A DNA stretch of 63,931 nt, counting the filler, from Reclinomonas americana ATCC 50394 (lineage: Eukaryota): the NCBI GenBank assembly GCA_048213135.1. It is 11 parts of 11 records of this genome, joined end to end, with 100 filler letters (N's around TTAATTAATTAA, not from the genome) between each part and the next. Parts side by side here need not be neighbours in the genome. Positions count along the whole stretch, not along the records: positions 24,465 to 37,141 come from AFZH01017870.1; positions 37,242 to 44,860 come from AFZH01017872.1; 9 more parts are not named here. One strand, written 5' to 3'. How positions within the stretch are numbered: position 1 is the first letter of the stretch; the number at the start of each line of letters is the position of its first letter. A program made the translations under genes and the position numbers. Under the pieces are notes generated by a model. It made no database searches. It was not told the DNA's origin and saw only the letters and a list, made by a program, of their open reading frames with translations. Shown here piece after piece: positions 1,191 to 61,889 of the stretch.

Positions 1191-1352
1191 TCGCAGGCAA
1201 GTGCGACGCGCACGTGCGACCAGACAGACCACGAATGCAGCAGAGGAGACCATGTGTTGTGAATGTGCAGCCAAAGTAGTACACTGGGGGGAAAACATAA
1301 GCAACGTTCGTGGTGGGGGCAACGCAAGTGTCCTCTCGTTTCAAAAAAGACA

Positions 1353-6590: not shown

Positions 6591-6690
6591 NNNNNNNNNN
6601 NNNNNNNNNNNNNNNNNNNNNNNNNNNNNNNNNNTTAATTAATTAANNNNNNNNNNNNNNNNNNNNNNNNNNNNNNNNNNNNNNNNNNNN

Positions 6691-9888: not shown

Positions 9889-10133
9889 NNNNNNNNNNNN
9901 NNNNNNNNNNNNNNNNNNNNNNNNNNNNNNNNTTAATTAATTAANNNNNNNNNNNNNNNNNNNNNNNNNNNNNNNNNNNNNNNNNNNNGCATTGTGGACT
10001 GAAGCAGTTGCACGGTGTCACTGGTGTCCATCATCATCATCATCAAGCAATGCATGGATGACTCGATCGGCGACGAGGCAAGTGCAGTTGCCGCGCCCGT
10101 AATTCGTTCCTTCAGCTCGTGCGGCGAGCAAGA

Positions 10134-18637: not shown

Positions 18638-20210
18638 TTAGAAGCAATTGTTGCCTGCCACCGACCGGTACTGGAAGTACTTGACCGTGGCCCACCTGCG
18701 TGCACGTTCCGACGAGTCAACAACACCTGCAGTGACAACGACAGGCAGCAAACGACGACATACCACCACAGCAGCGCCGCCAGGATGATGAAAATGTGCC
18801 ACCAGTGGTGGCTCGCTCCGAGCAAGTCGAACCGACCCGGCCACTGTCGCTCGGGCCACCTGCAGCGACACGTGAGCGGATGCTGCCTTCCCGACACACG
18901 GCAGAATGGACACGGAACGCAACATGGCAAAGTAGAACACGAATGCAATAATGTACAGCATGAACATGGACACCATGGGAATGAAGAAGAGGAACACCTC
19001 CTCCAACTGCGCACGACAAGGAGAATGAACACAGCGCACAGCAAGGAATGGTGTTGCAGGGGAGGAGGATTGCGCGCACCGTCGCAATACCAAACAGCCA
19101 GTGGAACGTGGGAACCAGGCCGAACAGCGCATTGGCCAGGAAGAAGAAGGTGCGCACCATGACGAGAGCCGGCCGCCGCGAGATCTGTGGGATGCAAGCC
19201 AGCACCAGGCCGACGACGAAGAAGAAGGCCAGGATGCCGAGGTACACGGCCTGTGCCACCGAGTGGCAGTAGAAGCCGTAGTCTGCACGTGCCGCGTGTA
19301 AGGGGAAAGGGAGGGGGAGGGAGAGAGAGCACACACACAAGGGTGACGCAACAAATGCCGGGGAAGCTGGAACCCATAATCNNNNNNNNNNNNNNNNNNN
19401 NNNNNNNNNNNNNNNNNNNNNNNNNTTAATTAATTAANNNNNNNNNNNNNNNNNNNNNNNNNNNNNNNNNNNNNNNNNNNNCACACACACATTCACATTC
19501 TCACGCGCAAAAACGAAACTCGGCACACAACAGTCCAACAGCGACACTGCCGCCGGGCGCTCCATGTCAAAGCAGTCGCGCTCAGCATCCGGGCGCGTCT
19601 TGCGCTTCAACCCCTCACCCTTCTGCGCACACGCCGCGAAGAATCTCAGAAAAAAACATCAATAAAAACAGTCAACTCACACACTCGCTCTCACCTTTCT
19701 TCTCTTCCTGGGCGCGCCTGGCGACGACGCCTCTCCCACTGCGCCATCTGTGGTGGTGGTCGTCGTCACCGTGGCCACCACTGTAGTCACCGTTGTTGTT
19801 GACTGATGCTGTTGCTGTTGCTGTTGTGAATCGTCCAGTGCCTTCTCCTCCTGCTCCTCTTCTGCCTGTGGCTGGCGAGTGACCGTCGTCGTGGTCATGG
19901 TCTTGGTGGTGTGCGTGGAGGTCGCCGACGACGCAGACGCAGCTGCGGCGGCAGCAGTGGCCGCCGCCACTGCCACCTTGATGGCGTGCTGTTGGTGTTG
20001 CTGGAGGAGACGGTTGTGACCCTCCTCTACATCCTCGTCTTCCTCTTCATACTCCTCGTCGTCTTCCTCCTCGTCGGCGTGGTCCAGAAACGAGGCATAT
20101 TCGGCGGCCTCGGAGGCGCCAATGGCGTGCGAGATGAAGGCCAGAGTGGTGCTGCTCGAGGCCGGCTCGCTGTTGCTGCCGAGCGAGGAGGCACTGCCAC
20201 TGCGCAGCAT
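18638..20210 (-). CDS. PAQR/adiponectin-receptor (haemolysin III) family membrane protein spanning a gap; acidic low-complexity N-terminal exon probable
   Basis: IMGSSFPGI..YGFYCH, WPERQWPGRFDLLGASHHWWHIFI in 18638-19381. Linkage to the 19482-20210 exons across the gap is inferred. Confidence 0.75.
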
Positions 20211-24364: not shown

Positions 24365-24464
24365 NNNNNNNNNNNNNNNNNNNNNNNNNNNNNNNNNNNN
24401 NNNNNNNNTTAATTAATTAANNNNNNNNNNNNNNNNNNNNNNNNNNNNNNNNNNNNNNNNNNNN

Positions 24465-28110: not shown

Positions 28111-29980
28111 TTAATACTCGGGGAACGTCGGGTCGACCTCTCTGCTCCACGCCTGCATGCCGCCCGCCACATTGTACACACGGAGGAAACCATTGTCGAG
28201 CAGCAGCCGGGTGGCGCGCACGGAATCAATGCCGCGCCGGCACACGACAAACACTAAAGAAGGAAGGGAGGAAGTCACGACGAGTGCACAAACAACGGAC
28301 TCGCCAGCAAACATACCCGATGGAGGTGACGCATCCTCGTCACCCTCGCTGCGCACTTCATCCACCCACTGCGTCAGCTCCTCTAGTCGAGTTGAAAGCG
28401 TCGCCAGCGGCACATCTGCTCACAGCCGTGTCACCACAAAGACACTTGCAGCCCCCAGACACAGTGCATCGCAACTCCTCGATCCCTGCAGCGCGGCCAT
28501 GGCGAATTGCGTTGGGCCACGCACGTCCAGCAGCACATGCGGCTCCACCTGTACGCGACTGGCAAACTCGGTGACAGACACGTGGTGCTCGGCTGGCACT
28601 TCGGGGAGGTTAGTGGGCCGCAGAGTGCACTCCTTGGTCACGCCGTACGCCACCAGCGACGAGATGGTCGGATCGTCACCTGGCCTCAGCATGAGTGCAC
28701 TCACTTTGTCTTTCTCTGGTCTCTCTCTCTCTCTCCCACATACCGCACACGGCGCAAGCGCGATTCCGTGGTCGCGTCCGCACAGTTCGAAACGACGGCT
28801 CGAGACCGTCGTAGATCAGCATGCGTTCCGACAAGACGTTGCCGACTCGTGCAATGACCTTGATCGCCTCCAGTGCCTGCAGGCAGCCCATCACACCCGG
28901 CACAGGTCCCACCACGCCACCGTCAGCACAGTTGGTGACAGCCGCCGCCGGTGGTGGCTCCGGAAAGAGACATCGGTAGCACGGACCGCGCACGTCACCC
29001 AACGCATGGCCGTACACGGTCAGCTGTGCAGCCGCGCGGGTGTCAGGTGACACACATAGGCAGAAGAAGACTCCTTTGTCTGTGGTATGTTCACCTGTCC
29101 TTGGAATCGCAGCGCTGACGCCGAGATCAGCGGCTTGCCTCGCAGCGCACAGGCGTCGTTCACCAGGTACCGCGTCGCCACATTGTCGGTGCAGTCGAGC
29201 ACCACATCGTACCTGCAGTGTGTGGCGGTGAGTGCGTGTGTCGGACTGCGTGGAAGCTTTGGCGAAACGCACCCCTCGACAATGGCCAGTCCGTTGCTTT
29301 CCACAAGTCCCTCATTGTAGGTGTCGACAGCCACCAGTGGATTCAGGCTGGCGACGCACAGTCAGCACACCGTCGTCGGAACTTCAACAACGCCAACAAC
29401 AATAAGAGAGACCTCTGCACGGCCATCTTGGCGGACTCGGCCTTGGGCACGCCGACCCGATCACTCGGGTGAATCACCTGCCGGTGCAGGTTGCTGGCGT
29501 CGACACAGTCCTGATCCACAATGCCGACTCGCCCTGCACACCGCGCATGTCAGAGACACCAGAGACTCCGAAAATGGACGCAGCACAACAACGTCGCACC
29601 AACACCAGCGCCCGCCAAGTACAGAAGCGCTGGCGAACCGAGTCCACCAGCACCCACCACCAGCACCGCAGCCTCCTTTAGTCGCTGCTGGCCTGTGATC
29701 GCAAGTCACGCGCCCAGTTGTCTCACCACACAGACGCGCACGCACACACAGACGCACCAGCGACCCCAAAGTTCGGCAACAGCAGCTGCCGACTGTAACG
29801 CGACACCTCGGCCGGCGACAGCGCAGTTGCGTGTGTGAAGGCGAGGGGGCTCACCAGTGACTCACATTCGCGAACTTCCGCCCGTGGTGGTGCGTCTTCC
29901 AAGGATGCTCGCAGCGAGGCCAGCTCCTCCTCCAACTCGCAGATGCGACGGCGACGACGCGCGTGCTCCTCGCTCTCCAT
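28111..29980 (-). CDS. MOCS3: Adenylyltransferase/sulfurtransferase MOCS3 (Uba4): ThiF plus rhodanese
   Basis: [48 protein letters not shown], and rhodanese [24 protein letters not shown]. Confidence 0.95.
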
Positions 29981-35541: not shown

Positions 35542-38500
35542 TTATGATGATTCATCAGCTTGGTGGCGGTGCAGCAACTGGCGCAGCACGGCACGCATCT
35601 CCGCCAACTCGCTCTCGAGCATTTCGACGCGAGCTTCCAGCGCGCTTCTCCTCTTCTCCTCGTCAGCTAACCGTTCCGTTTGCTCGTTCACGGCGTCCAC
35701 CAAAAGCGCGGTGAGCGCCTTGTAGTTGACATGGCGCACGGTGGTGTCCACGTGCCGATGCGTCTCATGCATGACGAGGCCAGATGCGCGGACCAACTCT
35801 GGAAACGCTGCCTCCAATTCCTGAGCCAGCACGCCGTACTCGGCGGAGCCGGGCCGCCGGCCAAGGGCGGAGGCGCCGGGTGCCCAGGTGAAATCGTACG
35901 AATGAACTGAGCGCAGACGCTGCGCCACGTCGCCCCCAATGCGTCGAATGTTCGTTTTGAAACGCGCATCCGACAGGTCATTGGTGGTAGCACAAGCGTA
36001 GATGTTACCGATCGAATCCGTGAAGCTCAACTGCGCGACAGGTGCAGCACGACATGGGAAAAAGTAAGCACTTGCGGAGTGCACACACACATAGTGCACA
36101 GAGTTGCACATGATCACTCACCCGCTCGCCACTCTCGCCGACGTCGGTGAAAAAGATTGTATTCCACGGCCCCCCGTTTGCCATCGGCGGCGTTACGAAC
36201 GAATGGTTGTGCTTGAGCATCAGGTATCCATTGTCATTGGAACTTGCCGGCGATACGAACACGTTGCCACTGGTAACAGAGAGATCCGCAGCTATTGATG
36301 CCACACCGCCAACATCCAGCGTGGACGACACACTCATGGAGGAACACGCTACAAGTCCAGCGACTTGCAGGCCACCCATCACGGTGGCCATGCCGCCGAC
36401 TGTCAAGTTACCAGCCGCTGTCAGACCACCGCCCACACTCAAGGAGCCAGCAAAGGTGGAGGAGCCAGTGCCTTGGACCACGAGCACACCAGGATTGGCA
36501 ATGGTGAGGGTGTTTCCCAGCTGGAGACCGCCTGTCAGCGTCGTAAGACCGACCACACTCAACGATCCTCCGAGCAGCGTGGCACCACGGCCAACGGTCA
36601 GCGTGCTTGCTGAGAGCAGTTCCAGGCTGCCGTTGACAAAAGACACGCCGGTTACGTTCACGCCACCGCCTAGGGTACAAGCGCCAGCTACTGACAGGCT
36701 GCCTCCGAGAGTGGTGGCGCCTGTTCCCACTGAAAACGAATTCGTACCAAGCACCTGCGAGAGAGGACATGTCACAAAAACAGGCGAGACGAGTAACGCC
36801 ACACACCCCAGCACCTCCGTACCTGCAAAGGACCACTGTGACTGGCTCCCACACCGACAATACTTTGCGCAAAAGTAGCGATACCATTCACGAGAACAGA
36901 GGCGCTCGCCGTCAGCGGCCCGCGCACCTGCAAGTCTTGCACCGTGGTTGTGCCCGCCGACACTGTCAGTCCACCGCCCAGTGTCGTCAATCCGCTCGCC
37001 ACACTCAGCGTCGCCGGCGCATTCAGCTGCACAGCACCATTGAACGTGCTCGATCCAGACACCGTCACCGACGCACCGCGCAGCAGTGTCACTCCCTGCA
37101 CCTCCAGATCGCCTTGCAGCGTTGACTTTCCCATCGCCACANNNNNNNNNNNNNNNNNNNNNNNNNNNNNNNNNNNNNNNNNNNNTTAATTAATTAANNN
37201 NNNNNNNNNNNNNNNNNNNNNNNNNNNNNNNNNNNNNNNNNCGTCGTGTCGGTGGTGCTCAGCGGTCCATTCAGTGTTGTTGTGCCGCCGACAGTCAGCG
37301 TGCCACTCAGCGTGGTGGCACCGCCGCCTGCCACAGTCAGTGAGCTGCCGCCAACAATGGAGACATTGCCGCTTAGCGTCGAAGGACCAGCGACCGCCAG
37401 GTCGTTGACAACAACAACGCTGCCAGTGATGGTTACGCTGCTGCCGGTGATGCTGGTGAGTGACGATGATGCGCCCAGGCGAACGGTGCCGACGGTACCA
37501 ACGCCGAGATTTAGCGTCTTCCCGGCATTCAATGAAACGGAACCGGCGCCGGCAGTTGCGTCCACCACCACCGTCGGCGATTTCAACGTCAGCACCGAAG
37601 TCGTACTGTCGAGCGCCACAGTGAGCGCGGCGGCTGCATCGCACAACTGAATGAGGCCCGTGCTCATCGAAATGCGGGCCGGCGTTGCCGCCAACGCAGT
37701 AGAAGGAGCCTGTTCGATCGACACCGTGGAGCCAATCGCTCGCACGACTGCGCCAGTTGACGACACCGTCACCGACGAGTTCGCACTGTTTCCCAGCTGC
37801 ACCATGTTCGCTGTCAGCGTGCCGATAAGCACGTTGCCGCGAGCCCCGGTACCGCCGGCACTGGCGCCTGCGTCCATCAGTACGTTGCCACCGTTGTTGT
37901 TGGCACCGAGCGCATTCTGGCCGCTGATTCGGAGATCGCTGCCTGCGCCGTTTGAAGCCCGTGCGTTGCGCGCCAACGCAACGGCGATCCCGTCGGGAGC
38001 CACCAAATTGACTCGACCTGTGGCGGGACTGAGCGCAAGATCTCCACTTTGCGTTGTCACGGAGGGCGTTGAGACTGTTACGCTGGCCACGGCCGTGTTG
38101 CACGTGAGGGTGCTGCCGAGCACAGTGGCGGACTCGTTGACAAGAAGCGGGCCCATGACTCGCGTGTTTTTGCCAGCTGCAGCCAGTTGCACCTCACCGT
38201 AATACGACGACACCGCAACGTTGCCCGAGTTGGTGGTGAGTGTTATCCCACTGTCGGCCAGCACAGACACAAAACGCGACTGCGTCTGAATCGAGTTAGT
38301 GCGGAAGGAACTCGCGCCCAAGATCAGGTTGCCATCTAGGCCACTCGACGTGCTCTGTCCAGGCTCAATTCGAAGGTCGGCACCACTGCCGCTCGTACCC
38401 AGGCGGCGCAGCACAAACGTGGCGCCGGTAGCGTCACCAAAGGTCACTTGCTGAGTGACCGACTGCACATTGCCTGTCGCGAGTAGCAGCGTGCTGCCAA

Positions 38501-40710
38501 CTGCCACAGTGGAGCTGGTGACCAACAGGCCCGACGCTGGCGAGCCCACGCTCACGCCATTTGCAAAGGAGCCGTCGCCATTCACTGTGAGATGCAGAGA
38601 GAAATCACACACATAGCACAACAAGAGAGCAGCCGCAAGTGCGTTCATACGCACCTAAGAGCATGTTTCCGCTCCGCACCATGGCATTCACACTGTCCAA
38701 CTGCAACGTTCCGCGCACATCGAAGGAGGAGTACACCACAGCAGCACTCGTGGATGTGCCGGGGATCTCCAGTCGCTTACTGGAGGTGGCGTAGAAGACC
38801 AGAGACGAGACGGTGCTCCGGCCACGCGGCTGCACATTATGTGCTTCCCGTGCAGCGGCAGTGGTCACTGAGGTGGTCGCGGCAAAAATGCCCGTCCCAC
38901 TCACTCCTGGAGGACCAAACACCAATCCGACGTCGGCATCGTCGCCGCTGCTGCTGGAGATTGGTTCACCCGACAGCACTCGCATGCCGCCGAGGACAGA
39001 CATGGAACGATCGGTGGTACACGTATTAATCCCCACCATACCACCACTGCCACTGCTTGTTGAGTTGGTGCACAGCAAGTCTGCAAAAAAAAAGAACGTC
39101 AGCAGGGGGAGGACAGACTCACACACACGCACAAGCGCGCACAAGCTCCCTCCCTCCCTCCCATCTTCTCTCACACGCAAACCTTGTCTTACACGAAGGT
39201 CGCCAGTGATTATGGTGTTGCCCACCGAGGAGAGGTTTCCCTCCGCCGTCACATTCGTCTTTTGGCGCAACACAAAGTACAGCGTCAGCGACACGGCCAA
39301 GAGGAGCGCGAGGAGTGTCGCTGCAGCTGTCCACAAGAGCGCGACATGCTGCGGGGTGGCGAGAGCAAGGATGTTGAGCGCCACTTTCTCTCTCGCCCCA
39401 GTTCTCGATGGTCAAGTCACCTTCCTGGTCCCAAGTCGAGACGGCTTGCGCTGAGCAGCGGCGGACGCGACGATTGCCTCGTGCGCGACAGCTTGCGCTG
39501 TTGGCGCTGGCTGCTGATTGTGATGGGACAAAGGAGGAAGGTCGCGTGATGCGGCAAGTGCCCCGACAGCAACACGCGGGCGAGAGATGGGGTCGCCAAT
39601 ACGTAGCTCCAAGTCTGTGAGCCCAATTGGGCGCGACGGGGTGCCGCCGGGGGCATCAAGTTCGCCACTATCGTGGGACGGAGGGCGGTACGGCTTGATT
39701 GCGGCAGCTGGTGGCATTAGGCGGTGTTCGTAGGCGGAAGCGGCCGTCACCGAGGCAGGGTGCACCGCCAGTACTTCGCGATGAGCTGTGGTCGCATCCG
39801 CCAGTGGCAGTGGCAGGCGCAGTGCGTCGCCGAGCTGACGCGCAGCGCTTGCGCGAACCGACATTTCAGCCGCGGCCGGCTGCGAGGCGTCCGAGTCCGT
39901 GTCGTCCATGGTTTGCTCCGTCGACGGCATCTCCTCACTCAGCCCCGTACTGATGACAACCGGATTCATGACGACTGCAGCCGCTAAAGGTGCCAACTGC
40001 AGTGGTGGCGGGGATGCGGATAGCGTCGTAGTCGTCGCCGCCGCCGCAGTGGTCCGAGTGTCCGTCTGAGGCGGTCGACTGGCGATATCGTTGTGGTTAT
40101 TGTTGTTGGTCATGACAATGCGCGTCTCCAGCAAGCTACCACCACTGCTTCCTGCAGTGTCGGAGCTCGCAGCCGATGTCGCTACGGAGGGTGCGGCAGC
40201 GGATGCCACTGGACTGGCGAACCGCGTGCGCGGTGACGGCAAGGGCGATGAGGGTGGCGTTCCCGCTGGTGTTCGCGTCCGTGGCGAAATCGCGGGAGAC
40301 GGGGACTTGCCTTGGAGCGGACTTGCCGTCGGACGTGGTGGAAGGCCAGTGGCTGGCGGTGACGGAAGCGAGGCCAGGGACGGCCTGAGTACCGGCGGTG
40401 AAAATGATGGGGCACGGAAACGCTTCACAGAGGCCGGAAACATGACTGCCAGAGCATTTGGACTGACGGCGGCCGGCTCTTGTTGGCCTGGCGCCACGGG
40501 AAGCCGTAGTGGACGCGGTGGGAGCTGGTACTGCTGTTTTTCCGACTGCGCCAGAATCAAGAGAACCAAGACAGGGGTGAGTTTCGTCGCCCCCGGGTGC
40601 ACGTGGTGGCGGGCACTCACCGGTGGCACTATGTCCTTCAATTCAAAGGCAAGCGGTGTGTGAGCAGGTGGGAGGGGAATGGAGAGCGCCGTGTTGCTCG
40701 GCGGGGTCAT
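35542..40710 (-). CDS. Type II membrane protein: Pro/Ser-rich cytosolic N-terminus, TM, tail-fibre-like beta-repeat ectodomain, C-terminal peptidase S74 intramolecular chaperone and coiled coil; spans one gap
   Basis: RKPSRLGTRK|HVALLWTAAATLLALLLAVSLTLYFVL TM (intron 39349-39420); MVGINT, GGNVLMDAG and (L.V.G.TTL.G.)n repeats; SDARFKTNI..YGVLAQELEAAFPELV..VNYKALTALLVDAVNE. Confidence 0.85.
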
Positions 40711-41488
40711 GAGTTGCGGGAGGCGTATGCGAACTGTTGTGAGTGAAAGAGAAAGAGAGAGAATGTGTGTGTCAGTATATAGGATGATGTGCCCATCCCC
40801 CTTCTGTCAGAGCGGAATTGTGAGAATGAAAGAGAGAGAGAGAAAGAGATAGAAATGAAGAGGAAAGCTAACCGCGGCGACGTGGACATACTGTTGATTG
40901 GAAGACAACGCGACACTAGTGATCGTGAGCGTCTGGTGTGCATCCAGAATGCACGTGAACACTGACTCGCCCCCTCCCTCTCTGCTACATGATTCCATGT
41001 ATGTGCGCGCGTGTGTGTGTGTGCGTGCGTGCGTCGCTGGTGCCACGAGTGTGTGACATGTGAGTCCACACGAGAAAACAGAACACAAATCACACGCAAC
41101 CGTGGTAGCGGGTGGTCTCTGCAGCCTCCGCTGCTGCCGTCTGCACCGCTGTCACATGCGGTGGCGCTCGAGGTTGATCAGACGGCGTCGTTGAAGAGGA
41201 GGTTGCAGAGGTGGTGTCGTCGTGAGATGATTGCGACATTCCCGTATCTCTCGCTCTCTCGCAGTGCTGGAAATTGAAGAATATCGGACACCTGTATCAG
41301 CGATGAAGGCCTTGTGTTTCTTGTTTTCTTCGTCGCCTATCTTACTCTCCACACTCCACTCGTTGCAGGCGCACAGGGATTGGCCTGTCTGTCTTCTCAC
41401 AGGTGTGTGTCAGTTCGCGAAAAACGGTGCATCAACATTGTCGGACATACAGGACTTGGACGCACAATCAAACAGTGCCTGTGAGAGA

Positions 41489-42100
41489 ATGAGTCTGGAG
41501 GAGCTCAACGCTACGCTGGCGCAAGTGGAGTCATTTTTTGACAGCTGCGTATGCTGGTGTCAGCATGCAAGCAGTGTGTGCTGTTGGACATGCACGACAC
41601 TCACACCCACTTGCACTTGCAGGTGCAGATGGCCAGGCGCAGCTGGAGCAGCAGTTCAAGAATGCCGACGCTGACGACTCGGGGAAGCTCGATCGCGCAG
41701 AGGTGTGAAACAGCATATCATGAGCGAGATGTGCACTCGTGTGTTGGGTTCTGTTTTGTTTCTCACATGTGCGCGCGTGCGGGCGGCCATTTCCCTCGTT
41801 TCGCGCAGGTGGAGCGCTTGCTGCAGGAGCTTGCCAGCAGTGGCATGGTGCCAACTGTGACTTCTGTGAACGAGGAGGTCGTCAATGACGTGTTCACACA
41901 GTTTGACAAGGACGGCTCGGGTGAGTGCGAGTTGTGCTGCGCGCGCAATGTGGTTCATGACGAGTACCCCTCACCGCTGCGCACATTCAGGCACACTGGA
42001 GCTCGACGAATTCAAGGCACTGGCCAAACAGGTGGTCCTCGCCACAGTGCGCTTTATGGCTGAGCTCGCCGCCTCCATGGCCGCGGGCACGGACGAGTGA
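41489..42100 (+). CDS. Small EF-hand Ca2+-binding protein (two EF-hands)
   Basis: Loops DADDSGKLDRAE and DKDGSGTLELDE; four exons, the first intron GC-AG. Confidence 0.8.
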
Positions 42101-42501: not shown

Positions 42502-45500
42502 ATGCGAGTGCACCCGTGCACTCTCGAGTCAGGGGGCGCATGTACTGACACTAGCAGGTGGTGGCGGTGGCGATGTGGGAGACGAGTATCGACAACCGCT
42601 GTGTTGATCATGATGTTGGTCATGGTGGTGGTACTCGCACACTCGCCATGGCCATGCGCGTCGGCGTCCCCGTTGCCAGAGCGGCACACCTTAACGAATC
42701 AGCAAGTGATCTCGCTCTCTCAGCAGCAGCCGTTGTCGACATCCGCCCTGTGTGTGGGTGAGTGCACGCATCGCATTCGCAGCGTATGTGTGTCCGGCAT
42801 TGCCCGTATGGCCGTATTCATCACGTGATTGATCTCGTGTGTTGCCTCACAGTGCACGTCTCCTCCACTGGCCCCACGCCTGTCGACGCGTGCGGCATCG
42901 ACGACGTCCACCCATGCACACTGCAGGATGCACCATCCTCGTGTGTCACGGCACAAGGGTTCGATGGCGACTCGCCCGACTGGGCCCTCCATGTGTTGCT
43001 GGCCGACGATGGGCCCCCCTACGCCGCCTCCTCCTGGCACCTCGAGGTGACAGGTGCACACATATATACACTATGATTCCACTTCTTCTTCTTCTTCTTC
43101 TTCCTCATCGCAACACAGGGCGCAACACGACACTGGAGGCGAGCGTCACCTCGGCTGCCGTGGTGCTGTGGACCCCTCCCGGCAACACCGTCATTCGCGT
43201 GCAAGACTGCGCCGACTTTCGCCTCATCAACCTCGTGCTGAAGGCCGGCGACGCGAGTGTCTCCGACCCCGCACCTGCCGTTTTGCAACCTGCGGTCTCG
43301 TGGACACCGGCAGTGGCGGGCGGCGCAGACGCCACGAGCGTCAGTGGTGTCGTCTCCATCTCTGGCTCCTCTTTCCTGGGCACGGTGGGCGTGCTGTTGG
43401 ATACATCGTCTTCGGCAGCGGGTCTGGCGTCGGTGATCGCCAGCGACGTGCGCGTTCACATTGAAGACGCGGTGTTTGCCGACCACCGCGATCTGTCGGC
43501 GCTGACTATCATCCACACAAGTGCTTCTCCCGCCTCCACCAGCTCCCTTGCTGTGACGCTGGTGAACTCCACTTGGCGCAACAACGCCAAGCACGGCAAG
43601 GACGCTTCGGGGGCGGCCGTGTCGGTGATTGCGACGGCTGCGACGGCAGATGTTGTGGCAGTGGACGACGACGTGCAGCTCCACATGATCAACTGCACGT
43701 TTGTCGACAACTCGGTGGTGGGAACGGGCGACGCAAGCTCCTCACTCGGTCACGCTGGCGGCGGTGCCGTCTTCATCAGTGTCGCCACAGGGTCTCTCTC
43801 CGTCACCACCAGCGGATGCACGTTATCTGGCAACTCAGCCACGCAGCTTGCCGGCGTTCAAACCGGCGGTGGCGCGATGTACATTGTCGCATCGCCGACG
43901 ACGCATCCCGCGTCGTTGACGGACTTGAACAGTGTGTGGAGCGACAACCACGTCGTGCAGTGTGGCATGGGAGACATGGTCTCGCCGAGGGGCGCGAGTA
44001 ATGTGGGCGGCGGTGCGCTGTGGGCGCTCAACATCGACACGATGGCCCAATCGGGCACAGTGTGGTCGGGAAACAGCGTGACCGGCAGCGGCAGTGCTCT
44101 CCAGTGCAGCAGTTCTGGCACGCCACTGTGCGATGTTGCGCGTGCCGAAGGTGGTGTTCACGTCGGTGGCGGAGCTGTGTGGCTGCGCCTTGGCGGAGGA
44201 GGGGGAGGAGGAGGAGTGATGTCGTCCTCCGACGTTGTCGTCACACTCGAGGTTTAGTTTGTTGTTGGTCGACAACGCGCGAGACTCCCTTGTTCTCTCA
44301 CCGTCTTGCGTGCCTGTTCATGTAGAGTGTGTCGGTCACCGGCAACCGTGTTGTCGACAGCTGTCGCGGTGGCAGTGCTCTGACTGGCGACGGCAACAGT
44401 GGATATCTGTGTGGAGGTGGCTTTCTGTGGCTGCACGGAGGTGGCGATGACAATGGCGCCGGTGATGCGGTGAGCGCAAGTGTGCACATCAACAGAGGCG
44501 TGTTTGTCAACAACACAGTCTCCGGTGTGGCGAGTGGTGGCGACGGGAACACTGGCAGCGGCGATGCGATTGGCGTCGATACGTTGTTCTCCGATCTTGG
44601 TGCGCAGATGAGCCTGTCGGGAGGCGGGGCAGTGTGGTCGTTCTTCCCCGCGAACGTGCAGGCAGCAGTCGAGGTGCGTGGGCGGAAGGGAAGGGAGAAG
44701 AAGGGAAGGGATGAGGAAGGGATGAATGGATAGAGGGAGAGTGGGCGAGGTGATAGGGTGAAAGAGAAGGGAAGATAAGAGGGTGAGAGGGAGAGAGGGA
44801 GGGAGGGAGAGAGAGAGGAGGGAGAGAGAGAGGGAGGGGAAGGAGGAGGAGAGAGAGAGTNNNNNNNNNNNNNNNNNNNNNNNNNNNNNNNNNNNNNNNN
44901 NNNNTTAATTAATTAANNNNNNNNNNNNNNNNNNNNNNNNNNNNNNNNNNNNNNNNNNNNAGTTGGCTCGTCGTGCAACGGTGGCACGGGAAGCATGCGC
45001 TCTCGCGACTCCCGCGGCGGTGGCTGTGGTGGTGGGGCGATTCTCTCAATGTTCGCTGCTCGATCCTCGCAGGTGAGCGAGTGGGGTCGACTTTGAGAGG
45101 GCGTGCGTACACCGCTTCTGACTGACGCGAGATGCAGAACATCAACGACTGCAAGTTCGTGAGCAACGCAGTCACCGCCAGCGGCAACGGGGGCACGGCT
45201 GACGGTATGCATTCCAGCTTCATGCGTGCAAGAGAAGGGGAGACTCACCAGGTGTGCGGGCAGGTGCGCGAGGCAGTGCAGACTCGTGGGGCGGAAATCA
45301 CGGTGGCGGGGGTTTGTGGGTCGCCTTTGCGGATGATGGAGTGCAGGTGAGCCGTGTGCGCTGCGTGCAAGCGACTCGATTTCGTATATGAATACCCCGT
45401 GATGTGGCTTGCAGGTGATCACACAGTGTGAGTTTACCAGCAACGAGGCACGCGCCCTCGGAAGTGGAGGCACCTCTGGTGAGTATAATCGCGTGCAAAA

Positions 45501-48500
45501 AAATGTGACTGCGTGGTTACGTTTCTCATTCTCGGTGCAGAGGAAGACAGTGCAAGTGCCAACGCCGTGTCGCCGCATGCTGGGGGTGCTGGCGTGTTTG
45601 TCAATTTTGTGAAGAAGGGGGACCAGGTGAGAATTACATTCATGATTCCTGTTGCGCGTGCTGCTCACGTGGCGAGCGACGACGCAGACAATTACCCAGT
45701 GCCTGTTTCAGCGCAACAAGTCCAGCGACAACCTGACGGGCGGTGTCAGCGGTAATCTTGGGCGTGTACATTGCTGTGTCCCACTCTCGCGCCTGATCTA
45801 GCATCTCTCTCTTTCTCTCCCACTCCTTCTCTCCCTTCAGATGGTTTCGTCAGCACAGCTGACAGCATGCGGTCGACTCTGGGAGGCGGTGGCGGTGCAC
45901 TGTGGATCTCCATGGCCGGCGCTCTCTCACGGCAGGTACTGCAGAGTCGCATGAGTGACTCCCTTGTTTCATTCGCGCCGTCTCACAGCAAGAGATTTAG
46001 GTCCTGTCGCAGTGCGACTTTGTGGCGAACGAGTCACTTCGCAACGGCCGTGGAGGAAGCGCTGGTGCGGCGCTAGTCGAACAGAACACGAGTCGTCGCC
46101 ATTCCATCTTCTCTTTTCTTCTCACTTCTCCGAGGTAGGGGGCGACTATGGCAGTGCGAATGGACTGGGAGGCTTCCACGGTGGTGGCGCGATGTGGTTT
46201 CAGGCCACGAGCAGCGCCACGCAGACGATTGATGGGTGCACGTTTTCGCAAAACCATGTCGTCGGCAACAACAATGGCGGTCTCGCTTGTTGCGTTTTAT
46301 TTCGCGCGCGCGGCCCACCTGTGACTGTGCGTTGTTGACGAGTCTGGTCGTTACTTTCATGCCATCGCAGCACATGCGGGCGGTCAGGCGGACTCTGTTG
46401 GCGGGTTCACTGGTGGTGGCGCCTTGTACGTTTTGGTGTACTATTCGACGAATTTTGTCATGGTAAGTCGCACGTGCAATCCGTTGTCAGCGCATCAGTG
46501 TTTGCTGAACTCGATCGTCTGTACGCCAGCTTGTCAACAATTGTACGTTCGTGGAGAATTCGGTCACTGACACGGCCAACGGTGGCGTCGGAGGTAAGAA
46601 GGAGGATGAAGGACAGTATGGATGAGAGAGTGGATCGCAGCCCTCGTTGCTCACTCATTTCAACAGGTGATGTGACTGACGGCGATGCCAGCTGTGCGGG
46701 TGCCTACTATGGTGGCGGAGCATTGTGGATGTCGATTGACTCGAAGAACAGCACGCAGGTGGAGGGCACGCACACAGATGCTTGATCATGTCTGTGTCAC
46801 ATCTCATGGCTTCATTCTACAGACGATTAGCAACTCGCGCTTTGTGAACAATGTGGTCGAGAATGTGGCACTTGGCGGCCACGATGGATACGATGGCAAG
46901 ACAGCTGCGCTGGCGAGTGGCGGCGGTGGCCTGCTGATGCAAACCGTGCAAGACTCGTCGGTGGTGTGTCCGCCGCTCCCCCCCTCGTGTGACGCATCGC
47001 GGCGGTTGATTGATCATACCGTGGCTCACTGTAGACCGAGATCACCAACTGTGACTTTGTCGGCAACACGGTGCGGCACACTGCGGCCGGTGGCACGCGC
47101 AACTTCAACCGTGGCGATGCCTCCGGGTTTGCCAATGGCGGTGGAGGGCTGCTGGCCGCACTGCCCGGCACACTGCGGGTATGCGTGCATCCAGTGGTCT
47201 GACAAACGGTATGCTGACTGTGCGTCTGCCTTTTCATCTGCAGATTTCTGGCAGCCGCTTTGCGAACAACACTGCGGCGGAGAATGGTAAGAAATGTCGC
47301 TTACTGTACTCCCTGTTCTTCCCCGCCTCATTCCCCTGACTTCATGCGTCATCCGTCAGCCACTGGAGGCGATCACAATGGTCAGTCGGCCAACAGCGCG
47401 TCGACATACGCAGGTGGCGGTGGTCTGCTTGTGTACTCGCCACCGACGCAGTTGGCACGCTTGGTGCGGTGATGACAATCGTGTAATAACCCCCGCACAG
47501 TTCTTGCTTGCTCACCGCTCGTGCGTGCAGGTTCTGCGTGACAGCTCATTCACCTTCAACGTCAGCACCCGCAACTGCGCCGGTGGCTCGTACACTGGCA
47601 GTGGGTCGTCTTTTGCTACGTTTTGCGGTGGCGGAGGGGCACTGCTTGTGGCCCCCGTGCTCACCGCAGCACAGGTATATTCATTCGTTCTGTTGCTTGC
47701 GAGGCGCTTGCCGCGATCTCTCATATGCATGTCACGTGTCGACAGACGACATTCACAGTCAGCAACACCACCTTCTCGCACAATGCATCTGTGCTCGACG
47801 GCAGCGGCGGCCTGCACAACTCGCTCAACGGGCAAGGCAGTTCGCATCACGGTGGCGGAGGCCTTCTCATTGCGAACCCCCCGGCTCTGGTGACAGGCTC
47901 TCAGTTTCTCGGCAACCGCGTGGTCGATGCTGGTGCCGGCAACGGGCAGTTTGTTTCTGGCCAGTTGTGCGGCGGTGGCGGTGCCATGCTGTTCAACTCG
48001 GTCTCCCTTGTCTCGTCGGCGTTGAGTGGCAACTCGGTGACCTCGAGTGTGCCGGAGGTGATTGCTGGTCGAGCCTGCGGTGGCGGCGCTATGCTCCTCG
48101 ACAGTGCCAGCACGGCGAGCGCTGTGGTGGCCTCCAGCAACGCGGTGATTGGTGACTTGATTAGTGGAGGTGGTGTCTTGATCGGCGCGCAGTCGTTGCT
48201 GGCGCAATCGACTGTGTCCACCAACCAGGCGGACGCGGCTGGCGGTGGAGTTGCCATGGGTGGTGTCGGTAGTCGCCTTGTTGCTACGACAGTTTCCGGC
48301 AATTCCTCGCCGCACGGCTACGGTGGTGGTATCGCGCTGAATGAGGTGGCGACGGAAGCGACGCTGCAGGCGGTGGTCGTCTCCCGCAATCGTGCACGGT
48401 ACGGCGGTGGTATCACCGTACAAGCTGATCGTGCGCACCTGCTTCTCTCGGCAGCCACAGTGGTTGAGCGCAACGTTGCCGATCGCAACGGCGGCGGAAT

Positions 48501-51500
48501 CTATCTGACTGCAACCGGTGCGCTGTCGGTGACAGAGGGATCCGCTCTGCGCAGCAACCTTGCGCACCAGTTTGGCGGCGGTCTCTTTGCCGACTCGCAA
48601 TCGCAGTCGCAGTTGTTGAATGCCGTCATCAGTGACAATGTGGCGGCGTTCGGTAGCGGCATGTATGCCGGCGAAGAGAGTGTGCACGAGTTGCAGCGCA
48701 CCGACATTGCCCGTAATGTGGCATCGACGGCTGACGGAGGCGGACTGTGCCTGGAGGGAGCCACCTCCATGGTTCTCACTGAGTGCACGTTGACGGACAA
48801 CAGCGCAGCACTCGCTGGAGGCGCCGCTTTCTTGTCTCAGTTGGCCAATGTGCACTCTGACGATTGTCAGTTTACGGGCAATCAAGCGGCAACGTCGGGC
48901 GGCCATGTGTACGCCGGTGGCCTGAGCGCATGGGCGGACGCGGGCAGTTCGCTGCGTGGTGGCCTGGCGCAGCTCCGCGGTGGCGCTGCGTACGTGGCGG
49001 GGAGCGTGCAGGCCACTCTGGAGGACACGGTGCTCACTGACAACTCGGTTGCGGCGGGGGTTGGCGGTGGAATGTCGATTGCAGAGACTGCGAATGTGAC
49101 GTTGACGCGAGCCGAATTGACGGCCAATCAAGCTCAATCGGGTGGAGCAGTGCACACCGACAACGCACCACAACTGGTGTTGCTCGACACTGTATTGCAG
49201 GGGAATCGTGCCGTGGCTGCCGGTGGCGCTCTCTACGGCGGTGGCCACGGAGTGATTCGCAGTAGCGGCTGCCACTTTGAGGAGAACGTGGCCCTGCGTG
49301 GCGACGGTGGTGCAGCGTCGCTCAGCAACAGCACCATGGTGACACTTACGGATGCAGTATTCGACAGCAACGTGTCGGGCAGTCGCGGCGGAGCCCTTGC
49401 TCTCAACATGACTGCCGCGAGCGCGAATCAGATGACGGCTGGTGCGCATGACGCACCGCCGACTGGTATGACACTCGAACGAGTAGTACTGCGTCGCAAC
49501 CGCGCCGAGGCTCCAGCGGCGCAGGAGGGTGCGCGAACGCTCGGCCAAGGTGCTGGTGGAGGCTTGTTCTGGGACGGCGGCAGTGATCCGCAGTTGCTCG
49601 CCACTGTCGCAGCCGCGTTTGAGGAGAGCGGCGGATGGCGGCACTGGCTACAGGCACGCGACGTGGCAACCGAAGACAATATGGCGACCAACGCAGAAGC
49701 AAGTGATATTGGCAGCAGTTGCGTATGCTGTTGATTGACAGCGTGCGCCCAGTTCTTTTTTTGTTCCTTTTCGTTGCATAACGTACGTGCATGTGCTATT
49801 GTGTGCAGCATTCTTCGACGTGGTGCTGGATGTGTCCAGCGGACTACCGTACTCGTCGCCCGAGACGCCGCGCGTCTTGCGTGTGAACGCCACCGATGTG
49901 GCCGGCCAATTCATGTCGACGTTGGACAGCACGCTGTTCACAGTCTACTGTCCCGGTTGCAGTGCAGGCGTTGCGTGCTGCTCACCATTGCGCCAATTGC
50001 GGTATGCGTGCGTTCACTGATTGTTCCTCGAATGCATCGGCAGAGCACGAGTCAATCACAGGCGACGCACAACGGCACCGCAGTGTATCAGTTGCTTGTC
50101 AATGTGCGCGGCGAAGACGGTGGCGGTGGTGCGGTCAACCGCACATTTCGTGCGGACGACTCGACGACAACTACCGCCACTACGTTTACCGTCTCCGTGA
50201 CTACCACCGGCAGTGGCTCCTTTTCTGGTTTTTCGCCCGCCCTGGCCATGGAAGTAGAGCCGTGTCCCGCGGGCATGGAGTACACGAATGTTGGTTGCCA
50301 GCAGTGTCCGCTGGGGTTCTACTCGCTTCCTGGCCCCTCGTTCAATCAGACGTGCCTGGTGTGCCCCGAGCATGTCGAGTGTCTCGGCGGCACTGCAGTA
50401 CTCGTGACCAGTACCTACTGGACGTTCCCTCTGGATGCGGACTGGATAATACAGCCGGCACACGCGCGCGGTACCACGGGAGCCACCGTCCTTCCGCCAG
50501 CCAACGGCAAGCTAGTGGCCTACCCGTGTCCTTTCAATTACTGCGAGCGACCCGACGGTGCCTCAGTGGCAGCAACTGACGACCAGCCCGCTGATTACTG
50601 CAATGAGGTGTCCGACCGGGATCCCAAGTCGCCGATGTGCGGTGCTTGTCGGGTGGGTGGGAGGAGAAGGGGAAGGGGGAAGGGGGAGGGAAGGGGAGGG
50701 AAGGGGAAGGGAGGGAGGGAGGGAGGGAGGGAGGGAGGGAGGGAGGAGGNNNNNNNNNNNNNNNNNNNNNNNNNNNNNNNNNNNNNNNNNNNNTTAATTA
50801 ATTAANNNNNNNNNNNNNNNNNNNNNNNNNNNNNNNNNNNNNNNNNNNNGGGAGTGAGAGGAGGAACAGGGCAAAGGGGAATTGGAAAGGAGAAAGAGGG
50901 GAAAGAACGGGGAAGACTAGTAAAGGAGGGGGAAAACAGAAAGAGTGGGAAGACGAAGAGTCGGGAAAGGGTGAAGGGGGCGAAAGTCGATGAGTGATGG
51001 TGAGGGTTGTGAGACTGAGAGCAGTGGGCTCACGAATTGTAGAGTTGAGGTAGAAAAATAGGAGTGATAAAATGGTGAGGGAAGAAGACGATGAGATGGT
51101 AGATGGGTGTTCGTCGCAAAGTTACAGAGAACTTCGTGATTGTACTGTGGCAAGAGGAGGGAGAATAGCGCAAGTGGGTTGCAGTGAAATATTACTGAGA
51201 GTTGGAATGCGATATGCAAAAAACGTGGAAGGGCGAAGACAGAGTACGTGAGAGAGACGATGAGATTGTGGAAGAGTTGTGAACGCCGCCGTATCGGAGC
51301 AGGATGCGGGAGAGATGAGAGGTGATGATGAGGCGTATGCGCGAGAGATAGAGAGTGGACAGGGGCTAAGAAATCAACAGCGGAGGTGCCGAGGAAGTCT
51401 TCGAGAGAGAGAAATGACGATGATGCAGGAGAAACGTGATTCTTAGCTGTCTGTCTTCTCACTTATCCACCCTCCTTCCACCTCACGCCTCTCCTTTCCC

Positions 51501-54186: not shown

Positions 54187-54898
54187 TCATTGTATGGCGG
54201 AATACCACTCAGGCGCACGGCGTTCAATCACCTCCGCATCCTCCAACACAAAACATCGCAGCACGACGTCCACAAGGATCCAGTCGTGGTCGTGGTCGGC
54301 AAGCAGCTCGTTGACGGCCAGCACGGCTGATCGTGCGGCCGCAAGCTCTTGCCGGGCCAGCCCGCGCGGCGTGGACCACACTCGGATCGTCTCGTCCTGA
54401 CTCGCGCTTACCACATGCAGACCATCGGGAGTGACGGCGACAGAGAACGCACCTCCAGTGTGACCCACTAAACGTCGCAATTCTTGCCCACTCGTCAGCG
54501 ACCACACCCGCACCGTCTTGTCATCGCTGCCGCTCACAACGTACTGACCATCGGGAGTGACGGCGACGGATCCCACCGCGCCAGTGTGCCCCTCCAAACG
54601 CCGCATTTCTTCACCACTCGCCAGTAACCACACCCACACAGTCCTATCCCTGCCACTCACGATATGCAGGCCATCGGGAGTGACAGCGACAGAATTAACC
54701 CACCTGGAGAGTCCCTCCATCCGTAGTAATTCTTCTCCACTCGCCAGTGACCACACCCGCACTGTTCTGTCCTCACCCCCGCTCACAATGTATTGGCCGT
54801 TGGTAGTGACAGCAAGGGACCACACGACACCAGCACATCTCGCCAACTGGCGCACTTCTTTGCCACTCGCCAGTGACCACACACGTACCATACCAAAA
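54187..54898 (-). CDS. Intronless WD40-repeat protein (HET-E/NWD-like highly similar repeats), copy A; 5' end in gap
   Basis: About four 42-aa units GH..V.SVAVTPDG..VSG..D.TVRVW followed by a unique helical tail. Confidence 0.85.
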
Positions 54899-55321
54899 NN
54901 NNNNNNNNNNNNNNNNNNNNNNNNNNNNNNNNNNNNNNNNNNTTAATTAATTAANNNNNNNNNNNNNNNNNNNNNNNNNNNNNNNNNNNNNNNNNNNNGG
55001 AGAGTCACAGGGAACAGGAGAGGAACGACCAGCACAGCCGCTCAGCGATGAAGTGGCAGCTGTGTTAACGTTGTGAGGCTCGCCTCCTCTCACCCAAGTC
55101 ACAGTCAATGCCTCGCGCCTTCAATCACACTCACAGTCGGTCGGTGCATTATCTCATGCATGCACTGTGTGGCACGGAACCACGTGTCTTCGCATGCCAG
55201 TGACGAGTCACTTGCCAGCACGCCTGTCACACAGAATTGAGTTAGTCAATCTCCAAGTCTCACCAACTTACTCCTCAACGCAGATGCAGAACACACACGT
55301 ACGCACCAGGCCACGTGCGCG

Positions 55322-56711: not shown

Positions 56712-57604
56712 TCAGCACCTGAAAAGGACGACCTCGGCATCCTCGACGATGAAACAGCGCAGAACCTGCTCGGGAAGGCATCGAGAATCTGCTTCTTCCT
56801 CCTGCATCTCCTGCACAGCCTGCATGGCCAAGCGCGCGGCGTCGAGTTCGAGACGGGCAAGGCCACGCGGCGTCGACCACACTCGCACGGTCTTGTCGTA
56901 GCCACCGGCACTCACAATGTGCTGACCATCGTGAGAGACGGCAACAGACGACACCCATCCAGTGTGTTGCTCCAACTGTCGTACTTCCTCCCCACTCTCC
57001 AGAGACCACACCCGAATGGTGCTGTCTCCGCTCCCGCTAACAATACGCCGACCATCTGGAGTGACGGCCACAGACCACACCGCACCATTGTGTCCGTCCA
57101 ACCGTCGCACTTGGTCTCCATTCATCAGTGACCACACTCTCGCCGTGTTGTCCCAACTGCCACTCACGATGTGTTGACCATCGGGGGTGACGGTGACAGA
57201 GTATACCCGTCCAGTGTGTCCTTCCTGCCGTCGCACTTCTACCCCACTCGCCAGCAACCACACTCGCACGGTATGATCTCCACCCCCACTCACAATGTGC
57301 TCACTATCACGGGTGACAGCGACTGACCAAATCTCGTCAGTATGCCCCTCCAGCCGTCGCACCTCCTCCCCACTCGCCAGTGACCACACTCGCACTGTGT
57401 AGTCCCAGCTCCCACTCACGATGTGATGACCATCTGGAGTAACAGCGACAGACCACACCTTAACATCGTGTCCCTCCAGCCGTCGTACCTCCTCGCCACT
57501 CTCCAGCGACCACACTCGCACTGTCTTGTCGAAGCCGCCGCTGACGACGTGCTGTCCATTGGGGGTGACGGCGACAGACCACACCTTATATATCGTGTCC
57601 CTCT
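56712..57604 (-). CDS. Intronless WD40-repeat protein, copy B (paralogue of copy A); apparent 1-nt insertion near the gap edge
   Basis: Six 42-aa WD40 units plus tail WSTPRGLARLELDAAR..LPEQVLRCFIVEDAEV, homologous to copy A. Confidence 0.85.
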
Positions 57605-57818
57605 NNNNNNNNNNNNNNNNNNNNNNNNNNNNNNNNNNNNNNNNNNNNTTAATTAATTAANNNNNNNNNNNNNNNNNNNNNNNNNNNNNNNNNNNNNNNN
57701 NNNNCGGGAGTGCTCGCATTTCCTTTTTAAGTGTTTTTCCTTTTTTGTAGAGGCCAACCAGACTGACTGGACGGAGCATATTCCTATGCCCCCTTTTTGT
57801 TTCGTGATTCGACTCGAC

Positions 57819-61789: not shown

Positions 61790-61889
61790 NNNNNNNNNNN
61801 NNNNNNNNNNNNNNNNNNNNNNNNNNNNNNNNNTTAATTAATTAANNNNNNNNNNNNNNNNNNNNNNNNNNNNNNNNNNNNNNNNNNNN

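Follow-up and report, generated by a model that had tools for sequence, protein, structure and literature searches.

In a stretch of 63,931 nt of DNA from Reclinomonas americana ATCC 50394 (assembly GCA_048213135.1; the whole stretch is referred to as the window), the minus strand from 40710 to 35542 seems to carry an intron-containing chromosomal gene of a GC-rich eukaryote, which encodes a membrane-anchored, beta-rich spike ending in a Peptidase_S74 (S74) or intramolecular chaperone (ICA) domain. Our preferred reading, with a rough probability of 55%, is that this spliced chromosomal gene specifies a surface spike of at least 1525 residues, trimeric and held in the membrane by a type II anchor, from which the C-terminal chaperone is shed. 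To our knowledge, MYRF provides the one cellular use of this phage domain that has been studied well; there it is cytosolic and frees a transcription factor, and the use made of it here would be a different one.

The gene starts with an ATG at 40710-40708, stops with a TAA at 35544-35542 and is interrupted by six GT..CAG introns (75, 72, 114, 70, 68 and 91 nt in 5' to 3' order), the removal of which joins at least seven exons. Its spliced translation comprises at least 1525 codons, 1046 before and 479 after a contig join at 37142-37241. A preliminary description of this DNA had reported a spliced gene with this start and stop, the intron at 39420-39349 and the gap at the contig join, all of which hold on re-reading the sequence, and five further GT..CAG introns, including the possible one of 75 nt, now extend that gene model. 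The features of the gene are as follows.

40621..40710, minus strand: exon 1a, start codon and start of the Pro/Ser/Ala-rich tail (the ATG is the first one in an open frame of 464 codons, 39412-40806)
40546..40620, minus strand: possible intron 1 of 75 nt, GTGAGTGC...GGCGCAG; retention possible
39421..40545, minus strand: exon 1b, remainder of the predicted cytosolic low-complexity tail, to QRKPSRLGTRK
39349..39420, minus strand: intron of 72 nt, GTGACTTG...CCCGCAG, with an in-frame TGA at 39414-39412
39195..39348, minus strand: exon 2, transmembrane/signal-anchor helix (27 residues, ~39348-39268), then the first N-X-S/T sequons
39081..39194, minus strand: intron of 114 nt, GTGTAAGA...TTTGCAG, with a long T-tract before the AG
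38655..39080, minus strand: exon 3, putative membrane-proximal ectodomain with VGINT, GTGIF, LVFY and RLEI
38585..38654, minus strand: intron of 70 nt, GTGCGTAT...CTCACAG, restores the frame
37242..38584, minus strand: exon 4, 447 codons, Gly/Ser/Thr/Val/Leu-rich beta region, open to the contig end
37142..37241: contig join, N44 + TTAATTAATTAA + N44; some coding sequence is missing here
36823..37141, minus strand: exon 5, repeats of the shaft, with the frame open at the contig edge
36755..36822, minus strand: intron of 68 nt, GTACGGAG...CTCGCAG, restores the frame
36122..36754, minus strand: exon 6, period-6/12 shaft repeats (x-L-x-V-x-G type) and the segment preceding S74
36031..36121, minus strand: intron of 91 nt, GTGAGTGA...GCGCAG, restores the frame
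35545..36030, minus strand: exon 7, 162 codons, cleavage motif and entire intramolecular chaperone domain
35788..35973, minus strand: Pfam Peptidase_S74 match (PF13884; 46.2 bits with a cut-off of 22, E 5.7e-12), covering all 58 positions of the profile
35548..35724, minus strand: C-terminal long helix (exon-7 residues 103-161 in the AlphaFold model), predicted to form a three-stranded coiled coil

Removal of the 70, 68 and 91 nt introns restores the reading frame and the 72 nt intron carries an in-frame TGA, so that four of the six are required for frame or stop removal. The boundary of the 114 nt intron was picked such that the frame is preserved, and its donor could lie 2 nt away. Open frames of 447 and 464 codons exceed what would be expected by chance for the base composition of the window (~0.032 stops per codon by our own estimate). 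Over 37242-40900, a DNA sequencing run (X1; the run with 9% of the sampled words) yielded a single contig, of 475 nt, which is identical over 39731-40205, within exon 1b, and has no bearing on the introns or the gap. The two halves on either side of 37142-37241 probably represent one gene, because they lie on the same strand, are open in frame at both contig edges and carry similar repeats (39% identity over 67 residues by tblastn, E 8e-4).

The last exon encodes a genuine S74/ICA domain. It matches the complete Pfam profile well above the cut-off, and the predicted nucleophile (Ser, 35973-35971) and general base (Lys, 35958-35956) both lie within the motif LSDARFK; the domain and the two codons are as the preliminary description had given them. 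The catalytic role of such a Ser-Lys dyad is taken from excerpts of PMC3742443. In the PHROG database, exon 7 matches 27 tail-fibre or baseplate families (best E 1.5e-17), and in every one of them the match is to the C-terminal end. A tblastn search with this exon found 287 phage records, the best 15 of the 287 having 29.6-37.2% identity and including T5-like and lateral tail fibres, and a scan of IMG/VR found 11 loci with 27-38% identity. When sequences in the PDB were searched, the best match was the long tail fibre of a phage (6f45, E 7.9e-6), ahead of MyRF (7dc3, E 7e-3). A word-indexed search returned 18 longer proteins at 33-43% identity, all of which carry PF13884 and all of which come from uncultured sources. 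An alignment of 19 sequences showed S20, D21 and K25 (exon-7 numbering) as well as Y103 and the GV.AQE, FPELV and NY blocks to be invariant.

The predicted structure leads to the same family. An AlphaFold model of exon 7 has a mean predicted local distance difference test (pLDDT) value of 84.5, with 92-98 for the helix formed by residues 103-161, and ranks 1-12 of the Foldseek output are all ICA domains, headed by 7dc3 (E 1.7e-6, template-modelling scores 0.61/0.71) and followed by 3gud, 3gw6 and 4uw8. Predicted as a trimer, the domain scored 0.84, compared to 0.15 for the best of three controls; the runs share at least 92% of their contacts, the partner pLDDT is at least 79, and contacts recur with a spacing of 3-4 residues from 107 to 156. 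The mark that it passed is reached by 21 of 30 proteins that have been solved as same-chain pairs and by none of 23 that have been solved as single chains. A trimerising domain had been proposed before; the model and the structural search return the ICA fold, and the trimer is a prediction. Four of five features of the S74 family (profile, dyad motif, fold and predicted homotrimer) were found in silico; the fifth would be an autocatalytic release of the C-terminal domain once folding is complete.

At the other end of the protein, the N-terminal region of 430 codons is rich in Ala (16.5%), Pro (16.0%) and Ser (11.4%) and contains no sequons. Once the 75 nt intron is removed, this tail comprises 405 residues; it has no signal peptide. 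It is followed by the single strong hydrophobic segment of the protein (residues 406-432, maximum of 2.38 on the Kyte-Doolittle scale for a 19-residue window); the only other 19-residue window reaching 1.6 is at tail residue 214, with none after the helix or after S74. The helix is immediately preceded by QRKPSRLGTRK, and five Lys or Arg residues are found in the 15 residues before it compared to two in the 15 residues after it. The Pro/Ser-rich region of about 430 residues, the basic stretch and the hydrophobic helix had all been noted before and are confirmed. There is no in-frame ATG ahead of the helix in its exon, which continues the frame of the tail exactly, and therefore we consider the tail and the helix exon to belong together. 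A single-pass orientation with the N-terminus inside (type II) is likely, based on the positive-inside rule and on an N-terminal region of 405 residues that lacks a signal peptide. A signal-anchor-like helix with this orientation would place the fibre and S74 on the luminal or extracellular side. Of the type II anchor that had been postulated, the one helix with a basic N-terminal flank is thus found, while its topology would follow from the positive-inside rule.

The region between helix and S74 is a long sequence rich in Gly, Val, Thr and Ser, as had been described: exon 4 is rich in Gly, Ser, Thr, Val and Leu and contains two DLRI..GQ..GN motifs, and exon 6 contains repeats with a period of 6 and 12, with autocorrelation peaks at 6, 12 and 13 residues near the C-terminal end. 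A single-sequence AlphaFold monomer of exon 6 (pLDDT 60.5, predicted template-modelling score 0.60) has 22 short strands. A wide structural search with this model returned single-chain right-handed beta-helices with Z scores from 14.2 to 10, values that are inflated for repeat folds; the top alignment was to an adhesin from Caldicellulosiruptor (Z 14.2, rmsd 2.9 over 169 residues), and others were to a lyase-like protein, two-partner-secretion domains, autotransporter passengers and phage tailspikes. To describe the region as a putative beta-solenoid shaft is reasonable on the basis of this model; a phage-type fibre shaft is not shown by it.

Database searches with the shaft yielded very little. 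None of the window exons that were scanned matched a Pfam family outside S74, exons 3, 4 and 5 matched no PHROG family, and exon 6 matched a single weak family of unknown function (E 0.0055). Scans of IMG/VR revealed no relative of exon 4 or exon 6, a word-indexed search with exon 4 among longer proteins revealed none at E <= 0.01, and an alignment-based scan of JGI metagenomes gave 124 pattern matches, none of which was confirmed. When 1.84 billion representatives were searched exhaustively with exon 4 by HMMER, four proteins were retrieved: three short metagenomic fragments (39-49% identity) and a protein from Tetraselmis striata. The fragments (P0019, P0020 and P0022) share DLRIE.GQ..S...GNL.LGA with exon 4, and beyond the matching part P0019 continues as intron-like sequence. 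The fragments probably represent exons that belong to related genes of uncultured eukaryotes. The T. striata protein (P0021 from EukProt, 2318 residues) is the sole full-length protein that resembles the shaft. It has dozens of ~12-residue L.V.G..TL repeats and a Pfam Bactofilin match (PF04519, E 6.7e-19), and no S74 domain was found in it by Pfam. Exon 6 has 36% identity to its repeats over 153 residues (E 9e-13, with composition adjustment), a likeness that may be convergent. Language-model searches gave leads only: the nearest clusters to exon 3 were tailed-phage hypothetical proteins at 0.95, a value reached by about one in 100 shuffled proteins, and those to exon 4 were clusters labelled Chlorophyta at 0.92, which is a weak lead.

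The preliminary description had also listed fibre-type motifs in this region. VGINT, GTGIF, LVFY, RLEI, GSDLRISG and GGNVLMDAG are indeed present in the spliced translation. A motif akin to VGINT precedes S74 in MyRF and in homologues, and we considered whether VGINT is a homologue of the VGIGT unit of phage and bacterial fibres. This is not supported: a profile built from 38 distinct 28-residue units of 18 S74 homologues gave the window protein scores from -1.4 to 2.5 bits, whereas 500 shuffled sequences gave up to 11.0 bits. The architecture of a viral fibre had been said to be retained; this is correct for the order of a beta-repeat shaft followed by a C-terminal S74 domain, and it goes too far for the parts outside S74, which match no PHROG or Pfam family of known function.

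The genomic setting favours a long-resident cellular gene, because its neighbours are cellular, its introns are of the same style as those of a neighbouring gene, its codon usage is host-like and no viral hallmark was found among the scanned frames. Its GC content (0.58-0.61) is like that of the remainder of the window (0.53-0.62). The window contains 324 open reading frames (ORFs) with 100 or more codons; 303 of them were scanned, and the other 21 overlap the spike gene. The scanned frames matched cellular families only: CCDC53 (WASH complex), M24, RRM, RING, CorA, HlyIII, Pop5, GCFC, ThiF, WD40, RCC1, PCNA and Beta_helix. No capsid, packaging, polymerase or integrase family was detected in the 303 ORFs of this 64-kb window, where short or heavily spliced viral genes could escape such a scan. 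A ThiF/MOCS3-like gene about 5.6 kb downstream (28745-29835, minus strand) served as a reference for host introns; all five of its introns are GT..CAG introns of 60-71 nt. That the gene had acquired introns, as had been suggested, is supported by the same style of the six introns described here. Its codon usage is host-like: the relative synonymous codon usage correlates with that of five Pfam-supported neighbouring ORFs at 0.83, compared to 0.60 for an out-of-frame control, and the GC content at third codon positions is 0.68, compared to 0.63-0.67 in four of the five neighbours and 0.81 in the short GCFC ORF. No paralogue of the spike gene occurs elsewhere in the window.

Several other features of the window are listed for completeness. 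About 1 kb upstream of the spike gene, frames at 41231-42100 (plus strand) contain EF-hand-like loops (D.D.SG.L...E and DKDGSGE) and have no Pfam match at the thresholds used. A 730-codon frame at 47542-49731 (plus strand), 7 kb from the spike gene, matches Pfam Beta_helix (E 3.4e-19) with NosD and Chlam_PMP repeats, and has no PHROG match. WD40 frames at 54190-54897 and 56715-57602 (minus strand), with contig linkers between them, have very regular, near-identical repeats (...VRVWSLESGEEVRRLEGH...); in this they resemble the strongly repeated WD40 arrays that NACHT/NWD-type proteins carry. At 1301-2516 (plus strand), a gene for a methionine aminopeptidase (M24) has no database relative with more than 43% identity, and the organism seems to represent a poorly sampled lineage. 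The window as a whole is a chain of 3-13 kb contigs, the order and adjacency of which depend on the scaffolder, with joins (N44 + TTAATTAATTAA + N44) at 6591-6690, 9889-9988, 19382-19481, 24365-24464, 37142-37241, 44861-44960, 50750-50849, 54899-54998, 57605-57704 and 61790-61889.

Three other explanations have to be weighed against a cellular surface spike. The gene could be a virion fibre gene left behind by a large DNA virus or a polinton-like virus after its endogenisation, its helix having once resided in a viral membrane, its introns and host-like composition having been gained later, and its function being absent or related to the virus only. Endogenous giant-virus genes can acquire introns, the gene is nearly an orphan and its shaft repeats resemble those of the 2318-residue T. 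striata protein. In addition, polinton-like viruses in protist genomes ubiquitously carry long fibres with a C-terminal S74 domain, according to excerpts of PMC12220804. However, not one viral hallmark family was found among the 303 ORFs, the flanks are cellular (the EF-hand-like ORF on one side and the ThiF gene on the other), the six introns and the codon usage are those of the host, and exons 4 and 6 have no relative in IMG/VR. The frame has remained open over at least 1525 codons, and therefore we assume that it is under selection. Taken together, we regard a viral leftover as unlikely, if far from negligible. It is rather improbable that there is no single protein with tail, helix, shaft and S74 at all, either because the Pro/Ser-rich frame is separate or non-coding or because two paralogues have been joined at 37142-37241. 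Such an artefact would be in line with short contigs that are chained by ten linkers, with a gene model that was read from DNA, and with an intron between tail and helix that is a multiple of three in length and in which the frame of the tail stops at a TGA; contig breaks also often coincide with repeats that are common to paralogues. Against it, an in-frame ATG is missing from the helix exon, which picks up the frame of the tail exactly once a GT..CAG interval of normal length is removed. In addition, the same strand carries an open frame up to either side of the join, with one kind of repeat on both sides, and no paralogue is present elsewhere in the window.

A divergent membrane-bound transcription factor of the MYRF/MrfA type, with a DNA-binding domain that lies inside the gap, is close to refuted. 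As described in parts of PMC3742443, MYRF likewise combines a type II membrane topology, a Pro-rich N-terminus and an ICA domain, and the top structural match of our exon-7 model is the ICA domain of MyRF. None of three MYRF features was found, however: no NDT80/PhoG domain at E <= 0.1 to 1 in the sequenced exons, no transmembrane helix after the ICA domain and no MRF C-terminal domain in any exon. The only helix is located more than 1000 residues before S74, and therefore cleavage would free the chaperone only and not an N-terminal factor. Furthermore, the gap falls between shaft repeats on the predicted non-cytosolic side, and in sequence the domain is nearer to a phage fibre (E 7.9e-6) than to MyRF (E 7e-3). 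The distinction from MYRF that had been drawn before is supported by the missing NDT80 domain and by a helix that precedes S74 instead of following it.

Returning to the membrane-anchored surface spike, a number of points weigh against it as well. The exon-intron structure was modelled from genomic DNA alone; the 75 and 114 nt introns are in frame and free of stops, so that splice-site consensus and pyrimidine tracts are their basis, and a contig join, one of ten in this draft sequence, falls within the gene. The orientation in the membrane is predicted from the positive-inside rule. Many N-glycosylation sequons had been reported after the transmembrane helix, and this claim does not hold: the 1093 post-helix residues contain 10, compared to 13.1 ± 3.1 expected from 2000 composition-preserving shuffles (88% of which reach 10), and at this chance level sequons therefore provide no composition signal for a secretory location. 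The high trimer score may stem from a memory of solved ICA trimers. The exon-6 shaft model is a monomer of middling confidence for which Foldseek found nothing in the PDB at E <= 0.001. Finally, relatives are almost absent and none is full-length (four proteins with exon 4, three of them fragments), so that conservation of the architecture cannot be demonstrated.

For the spike, we envisage the following mechanism. The disordered Pro/Ser/Ala-rich tail of ~405 residues would remain in the cytosol and the single helix would serve as membrane anchor, while the beta-solenoid-like shaft of more than 1000 residues, rich in Gly, Ser, Thr, Val and Leu, would enter the lumen of the secretory pathway and later face the cell exterior. 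The S74 domain would trimerise via its coiled coil, and the trimer would template the folding of the three shafts. The Ser-Lys dyad would then cut before the Ser of ...NDL|SDARFK... and free a fragment of 143 residues, and the mature trimeric spike, held by three N-terminal helices, would move to the surface, where a role in adhesion or as part of a cell coat is likely. The donor of the S74 module may have been a phage, a giant virus, a polinton-like virus or a bacterium; none of these is singled out. The closest S74 sequences (33-43% identity) come from uncultured sources, and at least two of them begin with a hydrophobic leader that looks, by eye, like a bacterial-type signal peptide.

More tentatively, and with somewhat less than even odds in our view, the gene may represent a second, independent eukaryotic co-option of the phage ICA domain: a cell-owned trimeric, beta-helical "tailspike" with a long cytosolic tail, anchored in the plasma membrane, and with adhesion, recognition of prey or partner, or a virus decoy as its function. 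Its ICA domain would work across the membrane from the side used in MYRF and, as in phages, would be a template for trimerisation and a sensor of folding that is shed in the secretory pathway. If the spike is as we propose, eukaryotes would also have retained the original job of the domain, which is to build a trimeric fibre and to proof-read it, and fibre modules of viral or bacterial origin would be able to turn into ordinary cell-surface proteins. It would also provide a simple system in which Ser-Lys cleavage along the secretory pathway can be tested, and a point of reference when the S74 genes of protists are sorted into cellular and endogenous-viral ones. If the gene is just a viral remnant in decay, or if its model was joined wrongly, it would have little consequence.

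The preliminary description had considered this architecture to be undescribed. In excerpts of PMC13294678, S74 in eukaryotes is listed solely alongside NDT80 domains, and no spliced, membrane-anchored cellular S74 fibre was found in the literature on S74/ICA domains in eukaryotes, protists and giant viruses that was covered, although the supplementary figures of PMC12220804 may show similar N-terminal anchors. The claim of novelty stands to this extent only, as long fibres with a C-terminal S74 domain are known from polinton-like viruses according to parts of PMC12220804. Those fibres of polinton-like and giant viruses in protist genomes, as far as they are presented there, likewise exceed 1000 residues, are modular and carry one C-terminal S74 domain. 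The window protein differs from them by lacking laminin-G, collagen, adenovirus-fibre and baseplate modules, by its six spliceosomal introns, by its predicted cytosolic tail and helix, and by the absence of viral neighbours in 64 kb.

The comparison with other systems gives a similarly mixed picture. Proteins with Bactofilin-type repeats (PF04519; P0021) share the period-6/12 x-L-x-V-x-G repeats with the window protein, the exon 6 model of which is beta-solenoid-like, whereas the shaft exons of the window protein stay below every Pfam threshold. The closest S74 sequences, at 33-43% identity, are those of bacterial or uncultured "tail fiber domain-containing" proteins (P0001-P0018), which combine VGIGT repeats with a C-terminal S74 domain; their beta-rich passenger is secreted or exposed at the surface, as is predicted for the window protein, and some of them start with a hydrophobic leader that looks, by eye, like a signal peptide. 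Their VGIGT unit is undetectable in the window protein, and they lack the cytosolic tail and type II anchor. MYRF and its Dictyostelium counterpart MrfA share the cellular eukaryotic use of the ICA domain, the type II membrane topology (predicted for the window protein), the Pro-rich N-terminus and the fold (7dc3). In the window protein the order is reversed, with the helix first and the ICA domain last, the protein ending 143 residues past the catalytic Ser, and the ICA domain would act in the lumen or outside the cell, its cleavage freeing a chaperone rather than a nuclear factor.

The ICA-bearing fibres of phages (3gw6, K1F/NF endosialidase; 3gud, GA-1 neck appendage; 4uw8, T5 pb1; 6f45, distal subunit of a long tail fibre) have the domain in the same C-terminal position after a beta-rich passenger, and have the S-D-x-R-x-K motif, the GV.AQE and FPELV blocks, the fold, the coiled coil and the (predicted) trimer in common with the window protein. 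They differ in that the window gene is spliced, eukaryotic and chromosomal, that its N-terminus is a long, putatively cytosolic tail with a membrane helix instead of a virion-attachment domain, and that its passenger has no match to a phage family, with ~30-37% identity to phage domains among the matches listed. The protein is not demonstrably a phage fibre or the fibre of an integrated virus; as a member of the S74 domain family it would, judging from the models, work like an ICA-bearing phage tail fibre or tailspike.

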